Positions 6,842-59,407 of a stretch of 64,000 nt of DNA are shown in pieces. Each line of letters opens with the position of its first letter. Position 1 is the stretch's first letter. The notes under the pieces are model-generated. The model made no database searches. It saw only the letters and a list, made by a program, of their open reading frames with translations, and was not told the origin of the DNA. The stretch comes from an uncultured Bacilli bacterium (GTDB lineage Bacteria; Bacillota_I; Bacilli_A; RF39; UBA660). A program made the translations under genes and the position numbers. Where the stretch lies: contig CAJTZU010000003.1 in NCBI GenBank assembly GCA_910584165.1, forward strand, positions 126,576-190,575, read 5' to 3'.

Positions 6842-7729
6842 ATGAAAGAAATTCCATTATTTTTAATAGAGCGATTAAAAAATCAATACGGTGAAGAATT
6901 AATGAAGGAAATTGTAAAAGGCTTCCAAAAAAAAACAGTCACTTTTAGAATAAATCATTTAAAAACAACTTTAGGAGAAATTGAAAAAGTATTGGAGGAA
7001 GAAGCAATTTTATTTCAAAAGATATTTTGGTTTGATGATGCTTTCTTAATAGAAAATAAAACAGAAGAAGAAATTCGTTTATTAGATATTTATAAAGAAG
7101 GTAAAATTTATTTGCAGTCTTTATCTTCGATGTTACCAGTATTGTTTTTAGACTTAGAAGAGGGAATGAGCATTTTAGATATGGCAGCTGCACCAGGTGG
7201 TAAAACAACTGAGATTGCTTCTATCTATCAGGATAAAATACTAATTACTGCTTGTGAAAAAAATAAGATTAGGGCAGATAGATTACGTTATAATATAAAG
7301 AAGCAAGGTGTTAGAAGAGCAACTGTATTAGAAAGTGATGCCAGTAAATTAGATGAATATTTTTCTTTTGATAGTATTCTATTAGATGCTCCTTGTAGCG
7401 GTAGTGGTACTTTACAAAGGGAAAATAGTAATTCTTATTTTAAAGAAGAACTAATAGAAACAACAAAAAAATTACAAAAAGTTTTATTAAAGAAAGCTGT
7501 TCAAATATTAAAGCCAGGATCCACTATGATTTATTCTACTTGTTCCATTTTAGAAGAAGAAAATGAATTGCAGATAGAAGCCTTATTAAACGAGAAATTA
7601 GTAGAAGTGGTTCCTCTAGATTTTCCTAATGATATACCACTTCTCCCATCTAAAATATTTGGTACAGTAGTGGTAAAACCAACTTCTTTATATGAAGGAT
7701 TTTTTATAGCAAAATTAAGAAAGAGGTAA
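6842..7729 (+). CDS. RsmB/RsmF (NOL1/NOP2/Sun) family SAM-dependent RNA m5C methyltransferase.
   Basis: Motifs DMAAAPGGKT (SAM binding), LLDAPCSGSGTL (catalytic Cys) and STCS. Confidence 0.8.
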   Translation: MKEIPLFLIERLKNQYGEELMKEIVKGFQKKTVTFRINHLKTTLGEIEKVLEEEAILFQKIFWFDDAFLIENKTEEEIRLLDIYKEGKIYLQSLSSMLPVLFLDLEEGMSILDMAAAPGGKTTEIASIYQDKILITACEKNKIRADRLRYNIKKQGVRRATVLESDASKLDEYFSFDSILLDAPCSGSGTLQRENSNSYFKEELIETTKKLQKVLLKKAVQILKPGSTMIYSTCSILEEENELQIEALLNEKLVEVVPLDFPNDIPLLPSKIFGTVVVKPTSLYEGFFIAKLRKR

Positions 7730-7733
7730 TAGT

Positions 7734-8366
7734 ATGAAAATAATATTCGGTACTAGTAATAAAAGAAAAACAGAAGATATTGTGAAAGTAATAAATGAAA
7801 ATCGATTTGATTTAGAAGTTTTAACTTTAGAAGATATTGGGTGGAATTTAGCAGATATTGAAGAAGATGGTATAACATTAGAAGAAAATTCACTTATTAA
7901 GGCAAATGCTATATTAAACTTCTGCAAAAATCATTCTATCCATTATCCAATAATAACAGATGATGCAGGTCTTTTTATTAATGCGTTAGATGGTAGACCA
8001 GGAATTTATACTGCACGCTATGCAGAAGAGGAACGAATGAAAAATCCTTCTTTACCATCCTATGAGTGTGTTAATAAAGTATTACGTGAATTAGAGGGAA
8101 TAGAAAATAGAAAGGCCTATTATCAATGTGTAGTTACTTGTATGAAAGCTGATGGTAGTTTTAAGCAGAACATTGGAAGAACAGAAGGGGAAATTGCTGC
8201 TGAGATTACAGAGCCTATTATTAGACCTTACTTTTATTCTATTTTTAACTATCAAGGTATTAATTTTAGAAATTTAAATGAAGAAAAATTAAAAGAAACT
8301 TATCGTTTTCAAGCTTTAAAACAAGCATTAGAGGAACTTTTAAAAGATGAACAAAATATGGATTAA
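7734..8366 (+). CDS. rdgB: Non-canonical purine NTP pyrophosphatase (Ham1/RdgB family).
   Basis: The N-terminal IIFGTSNKRK and the DDAGLF...ALDGRPGIYTARYA core match the Ham1 fold. About 200 aa. Confidence 0.75.
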   Translation: MKIIFGTSNKRKTEDIVKVINENRFDLEVLTLEDIGWNLADIEEDGITLEENSLIKANAILNFCKNHSIHYPIITDDAGLFINALDGRPGIYTARYAEEERMKNPSLPSYECVNKVLRELEGIENRKAYYQCVVTCMKADGSFKQNIGRTEGEIAAEITEPIIRPYFYSIFNYQGINFRNLNEEKLKETYRFQALKQALEELLKDEQNMD

Positions 8367-54742: not shown

Positions 54743-55693
54743 GTGTTGAAGATGAAAAATGAAATTATTCTATTTGAAAATCAAAAAGTAAAATTAGAAG
54801 TAAATGTGAAGGATGAAACAGTTTGGTTATCTTTAGAACAGATGAGTAAATTATTTGATAGAGATAAATCAGTTATTTCTAGGCATATTAAGAATACTTT
54901 ACAAGAGGAATTAGATTCTTCAACTGTTGCAAATTTTGCAATAGTTCAAAAAGAAGGAAAAAGAAACGTAACTCGTCAGGTTGATTATTATAATTTAGAT
55001 ATGATTATTAGTATTGGTTATCGGGTGAAATCAAAAAATGGAGTTATTTTTAGAAAATGGGCTAATTCTATTTTAAAAGATTATTTATTAAAGGGTTATG
55101 TAGTTAATCAAAAAAGATTAGATTATTTAGAGAAAACAATTCAATTAATTGATATTGCTAATAGAATGGAAGATAGATTAGAAGATAATGATGCGAAAGA
55201 AATTTTAAAAGTAATTGGAGGATATTCTAAAGCATTAAATTTATTAGATGATTATGATTATAAAACCATAAGAAAAGTAGTTGGAAATAAAGATACTAGA
55301 AAGATTACTTATCAAGATTGTAAAGAGATTATTAGTAAATTAAAATTTCAAGAAAAGAGTTCTTTATTTGCAATTGAAAGAGATAGTGGTTTAGAGGCTA
55401 TCATAGGGGATATATATCAAACGTATGGAAAAGAAGATTTATATAAAAGTATTGAAGAAAAGGCTTCTAATTTCTTATATATGATTGTTAAAAATCATAT
55501 TTTTATTGATGGCAATAAAAGAATTGCGGCAACTCTTTTCATTTACTTTTTAAATTTTTATCATATCTTATATAAGAATGGTAGGGCTATTATTGATAAT
55601 AATACATTAACTGCTTTAACCTTATTAGTAGCAGAATCTAACCCTAAAGAAAAAGAAGTACTTATTGACTTAATTATGAACTTTTTGGGATAA
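54743..55693 (+). CDS. RhuM-family (virulence protein RhuM N-terminal DNA-binding domain) protein with a C-terminal Fic/Doc-family domain.
   Basis: The N-terminus IILFENQKVKLEVNVKDETVWLSLEQMSKLFDRDKSVISRHIKN...NLDMIISIGYRVKSKNGVIFRKWA matches RhuM. The C-terminus NHIFIDGNKRIAATLF matches the Doc/Fic HxFx(D/E)GNKR motif. Confidence 0.7.
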   Translation: MLKMKNEIILFENQKVKLEVNVKDETVWLSLEQMSKLFDRDKSVISRHIKNTLQEELDSSTVANFAIVQKEGKRNVTRQVDYYNLDMIISIGYRVKSKNGVIFRKWANSILKDYLLKGYVVNQKRLDYLEKTIQLIDIANRMEDRLEDNDAKEILKVIGGYSKALNLLDDYDYKTIRKVVGNKDTRKITYQDCKEIISKLKFQEKSSLFAIERDSGLEAIIGDIYQTYGKEDLYKSIEEKASNFLYMIVKNHIFIDGNKRIAATLFIYFLNFYHILYKNGRAIIDNNTLTALTLLVAESNPKEKEVLIDLIMNFLG

Positions 55694-55716
55694 CCTTTAA
55701 AAATAAAAATTAAGTA

Positions 55717-55747
55717 TTGACCTAAAGTAATGTTTAGGTGTTAAAAT
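55717..55747 (+). promoter_or_regulatory. MerR-type promoter: TTGACC, 19-nt spacer containing the dyad ACCTAAAGTAATGTTTAGGT, then TAAAAT.
   Basis: -35 at 55717-55722, -10 at 55742-55747, exact 19-nt spacer. Near-identical to the element at 58328-58358. Confidence 0.55.
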
Positions 55748-55766
55748 GAAAATGTGGAGGTATTTT

Positions 55767-56758
55767 ATGAATAAGAAATTTATAGTAATATTGATATTAG
55801 TGATATTCATTTTAGGAGTCGTAATTACATTTAGCATGATTAAGAAGGGGGATAAAAAAGTGGATAAAGAAACAAACAATAATACTGAAATTAATAGCAA
55901 TAGTAACAGTAATGAGAATACTCATCAAAATGTGGCTGTTATTTATTTTTCCGCAACAGGGACGACAAAGGATGTAGCAGAGACTTTAAAAGAAGTAACT
56001 GATGGAGATTTTATTGAGATTATTCCAGAAGAAAAATATACTAGTAATGATTTAAATTATAATAGTGATTGCAGGGCTAATAGAGAGCAACAAGATTCAA
56101 AAGCAAGACCTAAAATTGAAAATAAAATAGATGTTAGTAAGTACGATGTTATCTATTTAGGATATCCTATTTGGTGGGGAACAGCACCTAAAATTATTTT
56201 AACTCTTTTAGATACCTATGATTTAAATGGAAAAACCGTAATTCCTTTTGTACTTCTGGTAGTACTGGAATAGAGCAAAGTATTCAAGATTTAAAAAATT
56301 ACAAATCCAATATTCATTGGCTAGATGGAAAAAGATTTTCATCTCCTTCAAAAGCAGAAATTCAAAAATGGGTAGATAGTTTAGATATCCTAGTCACTAA
56401 AGATAAAAAACTTACTATTACTGTAAATAATCAAAAATTAACAGCAACTTTAGTAGATAATTCTAGTACAAAAGTGCTTTTAGAAAGATTAGAAAATGGT
56501 CCTATTACTATTGAAATGCATGACTATGGAAGTTTTGAAAAAGTAGGGTCTCTAGGATTTGATTTACCAACGAATGATGAAGAAATTTCTACTGATGCTG
56601 GGGACATTATTTTATATCAAGGCAATTCTTTTGTTATTTACTATGATAAAAACAATTGGAATTTTACTAAATTAGGGCATATCGATAATGTTTCAAAGAT
56701 AGACTTAAAAAATATATTAGGAAGTGGAAATGTAACTGTTACCCTTTCTAAAGAATAG
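55767..56758 (+). pseudogene. Flavodoxin plus cyclophilin-like-domain fusion gene interrupted by a -1 frameshift in a T4 tract at 56246-56249.
   Basis: The ATG at 55767 follows GGAGG. The flavodoxin motifs VAVIYFSATGTTK...YLGYPIWWG...GKTVIPF end prematurely (VLLVVLE*). Shifting one nt after IPF restores CTSGSTGIEQ..., the flavodoxin phosphate-binding loop, and runs without a stop into ORF 56474..56758. That ORF is a cyclophilin-like-fold domain (LTATLVDNSST...GDIILYQGNSFVIYYD...LGHIDN). Confidence 0.55.
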
Positions 56759-56769
56759 TCTTAAAAAAG

Positions 56770-56795
56770 CAAATCTAAAACTTAGATTTGTTTTT
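56770..56795 (+). terminator. Rho-independent terminator.
   Basis: Perfect 9-bp stem CAAATCTAA/TTAGATTTG with loop AAC, then T5. Confidence 0.75.
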
Positions 56796-56826
56796 ATGTT
56801 ATAATAAGGGAAATAGAAGGTGATGT

Positions 56827-57363
56827 ATGATTATTGTTTCTCATTATTCTTCCTTGCTAGGGGATATTTTAATAGCAGTTCAAAATGATAAATTAGTTGG
56901 ACTTTGGTTAGAAAATCAAAAGCATTATCTTTCAAATTTTAAAGAAAATGTGAAAGAAGATAATCAAAATGAAATAATTTTGCAAGTAAAAAGTTGGTTA
57001 GATAGGTATTTTAATAGAGAAAATCCTAGTATAAAACAGTTAGATATAGAACTTATTGGAACAGAATTTCAAAAAATGGTATGGAAAATATTGCAGACTA
57101 TTCCATATGGAACAGTTATTACTTATAAAGATATTGCATTAGAAATAGCAAAACAAAAGGGGATAAAAAGCATGTCTTCACAAGCAGTTGGAAGTGCAGT
57201 TGGACGTAATCCTATTTCTATTATTATTCCTTGTCATAGAGTGCTCGGTAGTAATAAAAGTTTAACTGGCTATGCTGGTGGAATTGATAAAAAAATAAAA
57301 CTATTAGAATTAGAAAATGTAGAGCTTTCTACTTTTACGATTCCAAAAGAAAAAAGCAATTGA
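56827..57363 (+). CDS. ogt: Methylated-DNA-[protein]-cysteine S-methyltransferase.
   Basis: Active site IIIPCHRVLGSN (PCHRV). 178 aa. Confidence 0.85.
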   Translation: MIIVSHYSSLLGDILIAVQNDKLVGLWLENQKHYLSNFKENVKEDNQNEIILQVKSWLDRYFNRENPSIKQLDIELIGTEFQKMVWKILQTIPYGTVITYKDIALEIAKQKGIKSMSSQAVGSAVGRNPISIIIPCHRVLGSNKSLTGYAGGIDKKIKLLELENVELSTFTIPKEKSN

Positions 57364-57378
57364 TTGCTTTTTTTTAAT
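57349..57378. terminator. Probable bidirectional terminator between convergent genes.
   Basis: Stem AAAAGCAAT/ATTGCTTTT spanning the ogt stop, with T-runs on both sides. Confidence 0.5.
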
Positions 57379-57856
57379 TTTTTTGACTAGATTCTCTTTT
57401 TTGATAATCTAGAAAGTTTAAAATATAATGTCTATTATGTTTTTGTACAAATCCAGCTTTCATGGCAATAGCAGCACTTCTTTCGTTGACGGCAAGAATA
57501 TTAATTCTATCTATATTTTGACTAAAAATATCTTCTACTACTGTTTGTAATGTAATTTGTCCAATACCTCTATTTTGAAAATCTTCTACAATATGATAAG
57601 TGATACCTCTTACATTTTCACTACCACCCACATCAAACCTACCAATTACCGTAGAATCTGTATTAATAATATAATAGTGTACACTATCTTGTTTATTATC
57701 TTTTTGTTTTAATAGAAGATACTGTTCCTGATATTTTGTTAATGGTAGTATAAACTCTAAAAATTCACCATGTTTATTAAAACGAAACTCAGGTGGTTTC
57801 ATAGTATCTGTTATTTTTGATGGGTCAATCATATTTATCACTCCTAAACTAATCAC
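57374..57856 (-). CDS. GNAT-family N-acetyltransferase.
   Basis: RGIGQITLQTVVEDIF and ILAVNERSAAIAMKAGF are typical acetyl-CoA-binding blocks. Confidence 0.75.
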   Translation of the reverse strand: MISLGVINMIDPSKITDTMKPPEFRFNKHGEFLEFILPLTKYQEQYLLLKQKDNKQDSVHYYIINTDSTVIGRFDVGGSENVRGITYHIVEDFQNRGIGQITLQTVVEDIFSQNIDRINILAVNERSAAIAMKAGFVQKHNRHYILNFLDYQKRESSQKN

Positions 57857-57859
57857 ACA

Positions 57860-58312
57860 CTATTTGTGTGCATTCTCATAGTATTTTTTAATGTCACTAG
57901 GCATTTTATCAAGTGTAATTGTTTTCATTCTTTTTTCCGTTCCATCTTTTAATGCCTCATCATAATACCAACATTTATAATTAATCATATTTAAAGCACG
58001 CTCTAATTCTGACATCTCTTTTTCAATACTCTTTTTTCTAGCAAGAAACATTTCTTTTCGTTTACTAATTGTTTCATCTCCTAGAGAACACCAATGCATA
58101 AATTCTTTGATTTCTTTTATCTGCATTCCTGATTTTTTTAAGCATTCTATTACCCTTAAAGCTTCGATAGTCTTTTCATTAAATTTTCTAATACCAGAAG
58201 AATCTCTTTCTAAATCCAATAATAATCCTTCTTTATCATAGAACCTTAAGGTGGGAATCGGTAAATTAAATATTTCTGAAACTTCTCCAATACTATACAT
58301 AAAAACCTCCAA
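57860..58312 (-). CDS. MerR-family transcriptional regulator (NmlR/AdhR-like, single conserved Cys in the dimerisation helix).
   Basis: HTH YSIGEVSEIFNLPIPTLRFYDKEGLL, coiled-coil C-terminus, Cys in LRVIECLKKSG. Confidence 0.85.
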   Translation of the reverse strand: MEVFMYSIGEVSEIFNLPIPTLRFYDKEGLLLDLERDSSGIRKFNEKTIEALRVIECLKKSGMQIKEIKEFMHWCSLGDETISKRKEMFLARKKSIEKEMSELERALNMINYKCWYYDEALKDGTEKRMKTITLDKMPSDIKKYYENAHK

Positions 58313-58327
58313 ATAAAAAAATAATAC

Positions 58328-58358
58328 TTGACCTAAAGTTAAGTTTAGGTATTACAAT
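58328..58358 (+). promoter_or_regulatory. MerR-type promoter: TTGACC, 19-nt spacer containing the dyad ACCTAAAGTTAAGTTTAGGT, then TACAAT.
   Basis: -35 at 58328-58333, -10 at 58353-58358. Sits 16 nt from the divergent MerR start. Drives the aldo/keto reductase gene. Confidence 0.6.
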
Positions 58359-58401
58359 GATAGTAGCACATAAAAAAAGAAAGTGCAAGAGGAGGGAATA
58401 T

Positions 58402-59370
58402 ATGAAAAAGAATATAATAATAGCAATCTCTTTTCTACTTTTCATAGTAGTTACTTCCTTTTATCTATGGAAAGAACAGGAAAAGAAAGAAAAATTGGAG
58501 GATAAAAAAATGAATATAAAAGAAAATGTTTCTAATGATACAAACTTTGATTTTAATGCTAAAACTGTAAAACTAAACAGTGGATATGATATGCCCATTA
58601 TAGGACTTGGAACATGGACACAGAATGATGAAACAACTGAAAATTCTGTATATTTCGCTTTAAAGGATGGCTATCGGTTAATTGATACAGCGCAATATTA
58701 TGGAAATGAGGTAGGAGTAGGAAATGGTATTCAAAAAGCAATCAAAGAAGGATTTGTTACAAGAGAAGAAATCTTCATTACTACGAAGGTATCTCCTTCT
58801 AATTATTACAATACTGCTTCTTCTATAGAGGAATCTTTAAGAAAACTCCAAGTAGATTATATTGATTTAATTTTTATTCATCAACGTGGTTCTAATGATG
58901 AAGAAGTGTATAAGGCAATGGAACAAGCTGTAAATGAGGGAAAAGTAAAATCCATTGGAATTTCTAATTATTATACGAAAGAAGCTATTGATGAAGTTTT
59001 AAGTTATGCGACTATAACACCTGCTGTTATTCAAAATGAAAATCATTTGTATTATCAAAATATGGAATTACAAGAATATGTTAGACAATATGGAATTGTC
59101 ATAGAATCATGGTATCCATTTGGAGGTAGAGGGCATACCAAAGACCATTTTAATAATGATGTAATATTAGAACTTTCTAAAAAATATCAGAAAACTTCTG
59201 CCCAAATTATTTTAAGATGGCAATTGCAAGCAGGCTATATCGTTATTCCTGGTTCTAGTAATCCTAGTCATATTAAAGAAAATTATGAAGTATTTGACTT
59301 TGAATTATCACTCTCTGATATGGAAAAGATAACAAGCCTAAATAAAATGCAAAGATATGAAAATTGGTAA
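58402..59370 (+). CDS. Aldo/keto reductase with an N-terminal membrane anchor or signal segment.
   Basis: The ATG at 58402 follows GGAGGG. The track start 58357 lies inside the promoter. GLGTW, IDTAQYYGNE, IFITTK and the catalytic tetrad context are typical AKR blocks. Confidence 0.85.
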   Translation: MKKNIIIAISFLLFIVVTSFYLWKEQEKKEKLEDKKMNIKENVSNDTNFDFNAKTVKLNSGYDMPIIGLGTWTQNDETTENSVYFALKDGYRLIDTAQYYGNEVGVGNGIQKAIKEGFVTREEIFITTKVSPSNYYNTASSIEESLRKLQVDYIDLIFIHQRGSNDEEVYKAMEQAVNEGKVKSIGISNYYTKEAIDEVLSYATITPAVIQNENHLYYQNMELQEYVRQYGIVIESWYPFGGRGHTKDHFNNDVILELSKKYQKTSAQIILRWQLQAGYIVIPGSSNPSHIKENYEVFDFELSLSDMEKITSLNKMQRYENW

Positions 59371-59374
59371 GAAA

Positions 59375-59407
59375 AAAAGTAAGTTTAGTGATTAGGCTTA
59401 CTTTTTT
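59375..59407 (+). terminator. Rho-independent terminator.
   Basis: 9-bp stem AAAAGTAAG/CTTACTTTT with a 13-nt loop, then T6. Confidence 0.7.

Follow-up and report, generated by a model that had tools for sequence, protein, structure and literature searches.

A 64-kb stretch of DNA from an uncultured Bacilli bacterium (GenBank assembly GCA_910584165.1, contig CAJTZU010000003.1, positions 126,576 to 190,575), referred to here as the window and numbered from its first base, carries two near-identical promoters of the MerR type together with the gene for a MerR-family regulator, merR, that may act on both. Site 1 stands in front of a gene for a flavodoxin-cyclophilin fusion protein and site 2 in front of a gene for an aldo/keto reductase (AKR), and the features of the locus are collected in Table 1. 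The merR gene points away from site 2, which begins 27 bp beyond the merR start codon (an ATG at 58300 behind a GGAGG), and it is the only open reading frame (ORF) of the MerR family in the window. This arrangement had been described in an earlier reading of the locus made from the letters alone (the sequence-only reading), which also named the products of the two target genes. Their Pfam domains are as described there, but the fusion gene is frameshifted in the window. The AKR scored 219 bits against the NCBIfam DkgA model, whose cut-off is 425, and its matches in the PDB are 1vp5, YvgN (3f7j) and 3b3d. A likely intrinsic terminator follows each target gene, indicating that the flavodoxin-cyclophilin unit and the AKR unit are both monocistronic.

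Table 1 Features of the locus around the two MerR-type promoters (positions of the 64-kb window)
Feature	Position	Strand	Details
Site 1, MerR-type promoter/operator of the flavodoxin-cyclophilin gene	55717-55747	+	TTGACCTAAAGTAATGTTTAGGTGTTAAAAT; -35 TTGACC 55717-55722; 19-nt spacer; -10 TAAAAT 55742-55747; dyad 55720-55739
Ribosome-binding site of the flavodoxin-cyclophilin gene	55756-55760	+	GGAGG; ATG at 55767
Flavodoxin-cyclophilin fusion gene	55767-56758	+	Pfam Flavodoxin_4 and Cyclophil_like2; N-terminal hydrophobic helix
Hairpin and TTTTT, likely intrinsic terminator	56768-56795	+	RNA fold -12.1 kcal/mol
ogt-type O6-alkylguanine-DNA methyltransferase gene	56827-57363	+	Between the two regulated units
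Bidirectional terminator	Between the ogt-type gene (ends 57363) and the GNAT gene (57374)		
GNAT acetyltransferase gene	57374-57832	-	Pfam Acetyltransf_1/3; 27 nt downstream of merR
merR gene	57860-58300	-	146-aa MerR-family regulator; Pfam MerR_1, MerR, MerR-DNA-bind
Site 2, MerR-type promoter/operator of the AKR gene	58328-58358	+	TTGACCTAAAGTTAAGTTTAGGTATTACAAT; -35 TTGACC 58328-58333; 19-nt spacer; -10 TACAAT 58353-58358; dyad 58331-58350
Probable merR promoter	58360-58388	-	-35 TTGCAC 58388-58383; 17-nt spacer; extended -10 TGC-TACTAT 58365-58360
Ribosome-binding site of the AKR gene	58390-58395	+	AGGAGG
AKR gene, DkgA/YvgN-like	58402-59370	+	322 aa; Pfam Aldo_ket_red E 8e-46
Hairpin and TTTTTT, likely terminator	59373-59407	+	RNA fold -13.0 kcal/mol

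The two sites share 27 of their 31 bases, the exceptions being positions 13, 15, 24 and 28, and in both of them the -35 and the -10 hexamers each match the consensus at five of six bases. Target promoters of MerR-type regulators combine a spacer of 19-20 bp with a palindromic operator, and both sites have this architecture, with a 20-bp dyad. The promoters lie exactly where the sequence-only reading had placed them, and its description of a MerR-type architecture with a shared dyad in the spacer was borne out as well. Sites 1 and 2 are the only two occurrences of the dyad ACCTAAA-N6-TTTAGGT in the window. A degenerate pattern covering all 31 nt and allowing up to 3 mismatches matched only these two sites in the window and gave no match in 100 dinucleotide-preserving shuffles. 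When the window was scored with a weight matrix derived from 48 sites in other genomes, leaving its own two sites out, site 2 reached 47.6 bits and site 1 37.9 bits; nothing in the rest of the 64 kb scored above 8 bits, and ten shuffles gave 3.0 bits at most. A further search of the window with the weight matrix and with mismatches found no third site. An Rfam scan of the whole window returned no RNA family, and the idea that the repeat is part of a known RNA element was rejected on this ground.

The same operator was found beside the same type of regulator in other genomes. A genome scan with the MerR protein gave 12 loci with full-length orthologues (L001-L012, 53-95% identity), among them Breznakia, Faecalicoccus, Bombilactobacillus (53% identity) and uncultured Bacilli, and in all 12 the operator is immediately divergent from merR, nine times exactly and three times with one mismatch. 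A metagenome scan with the pattern TTGACCTAAA-N6-TTTAGGT matched at least 120 stretches, of which 80 loci were examined. Among the matches listed, a TAnnnT -10 element follows at exactly 19 nt in 72 of the 80 loci, and it is present together with a G at position 11, a base that the pattern leaves unspecified, in 69 of them; the other 11, which lack this G, the -10 element or both, were treated as chance or unrelated sites. A divergent MerR homologue accompanies 40 of the 62 listed sites that have at least 500 nt of upstream sequence, and 22 good sites among the matches listed are orphans away from merR, like site 1, and precede genes for DXS-like, cupin, Fe-type alcohol dehydrogenase (Fe-ADH) and AKR proteins. 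The operator consensus from these comparisons is a 20-bp palindrome made up of ACCTAAAGTT followed directly by AACTTTAGGT, and it is perfect in L026 and L033. By this evidence, the same operator-regulator pair is recurrent in many gut Firmicutes and appears to form a genuine, if fairly ordinary, stress regulon. One contig (L093) carries, besides its canonical site, a different MerR-type site with a 19-nt spacer, TTGACCTGAAGTTGACTTAAGGATTTATAGT, which is present twice (7462-7492 and 8126-8156) near a second MerR homologue. A single genome may thus hold paralogous regulators whose operators have diverged.

The genes behind the operator also link the two targets of the window to one another. In two of the orthologous loci, a single operator precedes one operon that contains both an AKR and a flavodoxin gene, along with alpha/beta hydrolase and flavin mononucleotide (FMN) reductase genes in L002 and with a cyclophilin-like gene in L005. 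Together with the presence of the operator next to merR at every orthologous locus, this argues for one regulator acting on both genes of the window, as the sequence-only reading had proposed. Elsewhere the operator precedes a flavodoxin-CMD-cupin series (L006) or genes for an alpha/beta hydrolase, a cyclophilin-like protein, DUF3737, an aminotransferase and an FMN reductase (L007), and in other orthologous loci a single hydrolase or flavodoxin; flavodoxin genes stand behind it in L002, L005, L006 and L009-L011, and a CMD-family gene is found in the relatives L001, L006, L088 and L093. In the metagenomes, the targets among the matches listed are mainly alpha/beta hydrolases, cupins, FMN reductases and a 580-aa protein resembling DXP synthase and transketolase, followed by Fe-ADH, flavodoxin, CMD, AKR and metallo-beta-lactamase (MBL)-fold hydrolase genes. 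The sites, their architecture, and their co-occurrence with one clade of regulators and with recurrent oxidoreductase and hydrolase genes are directly established.

Proteins such as Fe-ADH, FMN reductases, flavodoxins, CMD proteins, cupins and hydrolases are usual in carbonyl and quinone detoxification, and YvgN and YtbE of Bacillus subtilis reduce glyoxal and methylglyoxal. The target chemistry, with a DkgA/YvgN-like AKR in the window and accessory enzymes in its relatives, fits carbonyl or quinone detoxification. The DXP-synthase/transketolase-like protein of about 580 aa (DXP_synthase_N, E 1e-82) is an unexpected partner for a detoxification regulon; its gene is the first after the site in at least nine metagenome loci (L028, L047, L052, L056, L058, L079, L084, L088 and L098). 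No class III alcohol dehydrogenase was found at the window locus, in L001-L012 or downstream of the site in the 80 metagenome loci listed. AdhC and EstD homologues were likewise absent behind the metagenome sites among the matches listed, where the sole AdhC-like match lies on the opposite strand of a chance-type locus.

The regulator scored well above the Pfam cut-offs for MerR_1 (66.6 bits, cut-off 21.6) and MerR (42.9 bits, cut-off 28.2), which places it in the MerR family. Its best sequence matches in the PDB are three entries for NmlR of Haemophilus influenzae (HiNmlR, E 4.4e-25), followed by 3GPV of B. thuringiensis, and the AlphaFold2 monomer model (pLDDT 93.5) has HiNmlR as its top Foldseek hit, with all Foldseek hits being MerR-family dimers. 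The predicted layout comprises a winged helix-turn-helix domain (residues 1-72), the long dimerization helix that is typical of the family (74-119, pLDDT >90) and two short helices (124-127 and 135-145, pLDDT ~90). The best NCBIfam model is also NmlR (NF041849, an equivalog), at 82.4 bits against a cut-off of 175. The sequence-only reading had called the regulator NmlR/AdhR-like with a single conserved cysteine. The likeness stands as far as the best sequence and fold match and the cysteine discussed next are concerned, but not as membership of NmlR proper, which was rejected since the NCBIfam score falls below the cut-off, the window contains no match to the recognition sequence published for NmlR, YYNGAGNNNNCTCNRR, and no AdhC- or EstD-type target lies behind the sites.

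The claim of a single cysteine was incorrect, as the protein has three, at positions 53, 71 and 110. In an alignment of 46 distinct operator-adjacent homologues (42-100% identity to the window protein), C53, the equivalent of the conserved helix alpha3 cysteine of NmlR and AdhR (Cys54 of HiNmlR, Cys52 of AdhR), is a cysteine in 46 of 46, and C110, within the motif F/Y-K-C-W-Y-Y (KCWYY), is invariant too; C71 is kept in 31. A wider family, sampled as the 150 best cluster representatives at 50% identity, has cysteine at position 53 in 132 of 148, at position 71 in 73 of 148 and at position 110 in 69 of 107. In the AlphaFold2 model, C110 lies inside the dimerization helix, nine residues before its C-terminal end; HiNmlR has Leu and 3GPV has Ile in place of this cysteine. 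The helix is followed by a C-terminal tail of about 27 residues with conserved P134, Y141 and H145 and the two short helices. Residues 119-135 of HiNmlR are mostly disordered, and the conserved, structured tail found here puts the regulator outside the strict NmlR/AdhR type, which has no sensor region and a disordered C-terminus.

The DNA-binding side of the protein differs from NmlR in step with the operator. In HiNmlR, Tyr17 and Lys24 read position 5/5' of the operator, with Tyr17 contacting Cyt5 and favouring G·C, and mutating this base pair lowered affinity 10- to 190-fold (PMC5001606). Position 5/5' is G·C in NmlR operators and A·T here, in all sites. The contact residues R19, F/Y20 and K23 of helix alpha2 are retained. 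In place of Tyr17, 40 of the 46 operator-linked homologues have Ser and the other 6 have Pro, with the Lys kept. This joint change of residue and base sets the clade apart from NmlR proper and supports the pairing of protein and operator.

The merR gene itself is probably transcribed from the TTGCAC-17-TACTAT element on the minus strand. The same layout is found in L001-L011, where TTGACA, TTGCAC or TTGCAT abuts the ribosome-binding site of the target gene and is followed, after a spacer of 17-18 nt, by TAnnAT or TAnnCT, TG-extended in most loci, with the spacer sequence diverging; it was not seen in L012. The assignment rests on the conservation of this position and of these elements. The start predicted from this promoter is near 58353, inside the AKR promoter, whose own start is predicted near 58365, and because a transcript begun there would cross the operator, autorepression of merR is predicted. 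Whether the GNAT gene belongs to this unit is uncertain, although co-transcription with merR is possible: a merR-GNAT pair is also present in L001, a GNAT gene is called at the same position in six conspecific contigs, and a weak hairpin (57872-57854) overlaps the merR stop codon.

From these data we infer that the protein binds the sites, activates by distorting the DNA and represses its own gene, and what kind of signal it answers to. We propose the following model, to which as a whole we give a probability of roughly 0.7. A MerR dimer would bind the 20-bp quasi-palindrome ACCTAAAGTn-nAnTTTAGGT that fills the 19-bp spacer of two sigma-70-type promoters, one reading into the AKR gene divergently from merR and the other, 2.6 kb away, into the flavodoxin-cyclophilin gene. 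With unmodified protein bound, the over-long spacer would keep both promoters weak. Once its sensor is modified, the dimer would under-twist and kink the DNA so that RNA polymerase could use the -35 and -10 elements together; under-twisting of an over-long-spacer promoter by the modified dimer is the known mode of action of the MerR family (PMC9909328). The merR gene, and perhaps the GNAT gene with it, would be read from the overlapping divergent promoter of normal spacing, and the bound protein would repress its own gene, as in the mer operons of Tn21 and Tn501. Sensing would be thiol-based, by Cys53 and probably also by Cys110 near the C-terminal end of the dimerization helix, and the inducers would be reactive electrophiles such as aldehydes, dicarbonyls or quinones.

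Several observations weigh against this model. The flavodoxin-cyclophilin fusion is frameshifted in the window and in four of six conspecific assemblies, so that the regulon may effectively consist of one enzyme here. The leader downstream of site 1 is only about 13 nt long, which leaves the ribosome-binding site about 2 nt from the transcription start predicted near 55754. The proposed merR promoter agrees with the consensus at only 7 of 12 positions, and a simple consensus scan did not list it. Cys110 is invariant in the operator-linked clade only and may not be essential for sensing. Finally, covalent modification by formaldehyde went undetected even in HiNmlR (PMC5001606).

The nature of the signal is where the model meets its main rival, a small ligand or a metal. 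An electrophile signal, sensed at C53 with C110 as a likely partner, is favoured given that the nearest characterized relatives are thiol-dependent sensors of formaldehyde and methylglyoxal and that the targets comprise a DkgA/YvgN-like AKR and the accessory gene set. Helix alpha5 of each subunit of a MerR dimer packs, through its C-terminal part, on the DNA-binding domain of the partner. With the same regulator and sites, the signal could instead be a small molecule, such as a dietary or host xenobiotic, bound in the manner of BmrR or TipA by the aromatic-rich KCWYY motif and helices 124-145 with P134, Y141 and H145, or a metal held by C53, C71 and C110. The tail is conserved, confidently structured and absent from HiNmlR, and the K-x-W-Y-Y aromatics are kept in the wider family even where Cys110 is lost, both of which would suit a ligand. 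In metal-sensing MerR proteins such as CueR and MerR, a ligand cysteine occupies roughly the place of C110 in the dimerization helix. Against this, a tail of about 27 residues falls far short of the drug-binding domains that are known, the targets classified at about 90 loci (among the matches listed) include neither an efflux pump nor a metal transporter, and the closest relatives of known function depend on a thiol. The CX7-8C metal loop (motif as given in bioRxiv 10.64898/2026.05.01.721428) is also missing, and the metal-sensor form was rated unlikely for want of this loop and of a transporter among the targets. We consider a ligand or metal signal unlikely overall, and less so than the two explanations that follow.

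The second question is whether site 1 is a working target. Site 1 is an orphan copy to which no merR promoter is attached. It differs by a single base from the merR-linked site of L002, which makes it closer to that site than to site 2, and the match to L002 extends over 52 bp (55696-55747, 90% identical). The flavodoxin promoter therefore seems to be a merR-divergent promoter that was copied without its merR half. Two operators within about 10 kb were found, among the loci compared, in the window's own species only. The gene behind it is broken at a T4 tract (56246-56249), which yields two ORFs, 55767-56273 and 56474-56758 (168 and 94 aa), and splits the Flavodoxin_4 Pfam model between two reading frames at profile position 109/110. 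Six conspecific contigs encode an identical MerR protein (L017-L022; L018 is GCA_948728675.1), and the broken gene with T4 is shared by L017, L019, L021 and L022, in contrast to T5 and an intact 330-aa fusion in L018 and L020. Since each allele recurs in independent assemblies, the polymorphism seems to reflect true variation between strains and not a fault of assembly. Decay has gone further in a sister lineage (L004), whose flanks are about 97% identical (L004 5880-7600 versus window 55186-59152). There merR is a pseudogene that has lost 1 nt near codon 16 and, through a 3-nt deletion, the Cys71 codon. The GNAT gene, the flavodoxin part and most of the AKR gene are missing as well, with the operator still intact. 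This indicates that regulator and targets decay together.

Taken with the very short leader, these findings could mean that the AKR promoter is the sole working MerR target and that site 1, an inherited or transferred copy, is an inactive relic before a decaying gene. Yet site 1 is identical in all seven assemblies of the species, two of which have the gene intact, and it retains every invariant operator position and the 19-nt spacing, at a score of 37.9 bits. Orphan sites before the same enzyme classes are common elsewhere, and a flavodoxin gene behind the operator is a repeated arrangement in the orthologous loci. We regard a relic at site 1 as quite improbable and retain site 1 as a probable second target of MerR. 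That the 31-mer is merely a duplicated strong promoter, constitutive or used by another factor and next to merR by coincidence, would agree with the near-consensus hexamers but is very improbable, given a 19-nt spacer that is disfavoured for unassisted sigma-70 promoters (PMC9909328), a palindrome conserved far beyond promoter needs, co-occurrence with the MerR clade at 12 of 12 orthologous and 40 of 62 metagenome loci (the latter among the matches listed), and a DNA-contact residue that changes in step with the operator base.

Both target proteins begin with an N-terminal hydrophobic helix (encoded within 58402-58510 for the AKR and 55767-55930 for the flavodoxin) followed by a linker rich in K/E or N/S, K/E-rich in the AKR. 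This extension was listed for the window, L001, L002, L005 and L009, the example in L005 being the cyclophilin-like protein, and is absent from the flavodoxin of L006, the cyclophilin-like protein of L007 and the AKR of L049, which belong to other lineages. Lysine is richer after the helix than before it, a distribution that would suit enzymes tethered to the membrane on its inner face. Between the regulated units, the ogt-type gene has an extended -10 element of its own, TGTTATAAT near 56797-56805, without an operator; its product fits a theme of alkylation damage, and there is no sign that the gene belongs to the regulon. Just upstream of site 1, a RhuM/Fic-domain gene (54743-55693) is intact in the window. 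L019 and L020 have it split into 225 and 70 aa, and L004 has lost part of it. The neighbourhood as a whole, where Fic, DUF4299, Imm33 and DUF5131 genes occur along with several of the GNAT and XRE types, has the look of an accessory region that varies.

The locus provides a precise operator and a candidate regulator for genes that are very frequent in gut Firmicutes and usually carry a generic annotation (flavodoxin, cyclophilin-like, AKR, alpha/beta hydrolase, cupin, CMD and DXS-like), so that oxidoreductases of unknown role can now be tested as a stress regulon. The replacement of Tyr17 by Ser or Pro as G·C gives way to A·T at position 5 is a natural experiment on how MerR proteins choose their DNA, and C110 is suggested as a candidate second sensor cysteine. 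No new regulatory principle is revealed. A more far-reaching reading, which we put forward tentatively, is that the clade is a distinct and widespread NmlR-related subfamily of gut Firmicutes, marked by the KCWYY cysteine and C-terminal module and possibly by an operator code of its own (ACCTAAAGT-N2-ACTTTAGGT, with Ser or Pro in place of Tyr17), in which two cysteines would form an inter-subunit switch for electrophiles or quinones controlling shuffled detoxification cassettes. If this were true, the subfamily would sense electrophiles or quinones derived from the diet or the host and would draw on a cassette pool of AKR, flavodoxin, cyclophilin-like, alpha/beta hydrolase, cupin, CMD, FMN reductase, Fe-ADH and DXS-like thiamine diphosphate (ThDP) enzymes, some of them membrane-tethered in the lineage of the window. 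A literature search for a MerR protein with this gene combination, subfamily, operator or regulon found nothing relevant, curated regulon databases lying outside that search.

Of the known systems, the closest is HiNmlR (HI_0186; PDB 5D8C, 5D90 and 5E01), a thiol-dependent activator whose structure on DNA has been solved and the best match in sequence and fold at 37-38% identity. Both are short MerR proteins with a winged helix-turn-helix domain and a long dimerization helix, both have the cysteine equivalent to Cys54, and both are divergent from a target. The Haemophilus nmlR-adhC-estD locus (L143) has the intergenic sequence TTGCCT-TAGAGTGAGCTCTAAAGTG-TAAACT, in which the inverted repeat TTAGAGTGAGCTCTAA fits the NmlR recognition sequence (PMC5001606). 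The adhC promoter is colinear with the window sites, in the same register relative to TTGnCn (TTGcCtTAgAGT versus TTGaCcTAaAGT), its spacer is also N19 as we read it, and the operators themselves are related (TTAGAG-N4-CTCTAA in NmlR, CTAAAG-N4-(C/G)TTTAG here). Counago et al. placed the -35 elements of NmlR in the center of the repeat, whereas here the repeat lies in the spacer, in canonical MerR style. HiNmlR further differs in having Leu at the C110 position and a disordered tail, in place of a second invariant cysteine and a structured one, and in its targets, a class III alcohol dehydrogenase and an esterase as opposed to AKR, flavodoxin and related genes.

AdhR (YraB) of B. subtilis, likened here by its published description, is also a Firmicutes activator of the NmlR type with a conserved cysteine. 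Its Cys52 is required for induction by formaldehyde and methylglyoxal, and its promoters include those of adhA-yraA and yraC, yraC being a CMD-family gene (PMC4776306); the regulon resembles the one described here in having several promoters and a CMD-family gene, as seen in relatives of the window. AdhR has a single cysteine (PMC5001606), and its hallmark target adhA, a thiol-dependent formaldehyde dehydrogenase, has no counterpart here.

Two more distant systems resemble parts of the locus. The mer operons of Tn21 and Tn501 have a dyad in a 19-bp spacer and overlapping divergent merR and merT promoters. Both features have counterparts here, with the merR promoter a probable one, and the operator would likewise lie on the regulator's own early transcribed region, but the relation to the Tn21/Tn501 MerR is at family level only (E ~1e-6), and the Hg-binding cysteine triad and the mer genes are missing. 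In Escherichia coli, YqhC, an AraC-family protein, controls yqhD-dkgA, a stress-inducible pair of an aldehyde-reducing Fe-type alcohol dehydrogenase and a DkgA-type AKR. Since both enzyme classes also occur behind the operator described here, YqhC is a functional analogue, with a regulator of the AraC rather than the MerR family and another promoter mechanism. Set beside these systems, the promoter type and the regulator family are textbook ones, and the member found here is a relative of NmlR and AdhR that stands outside those characterized.

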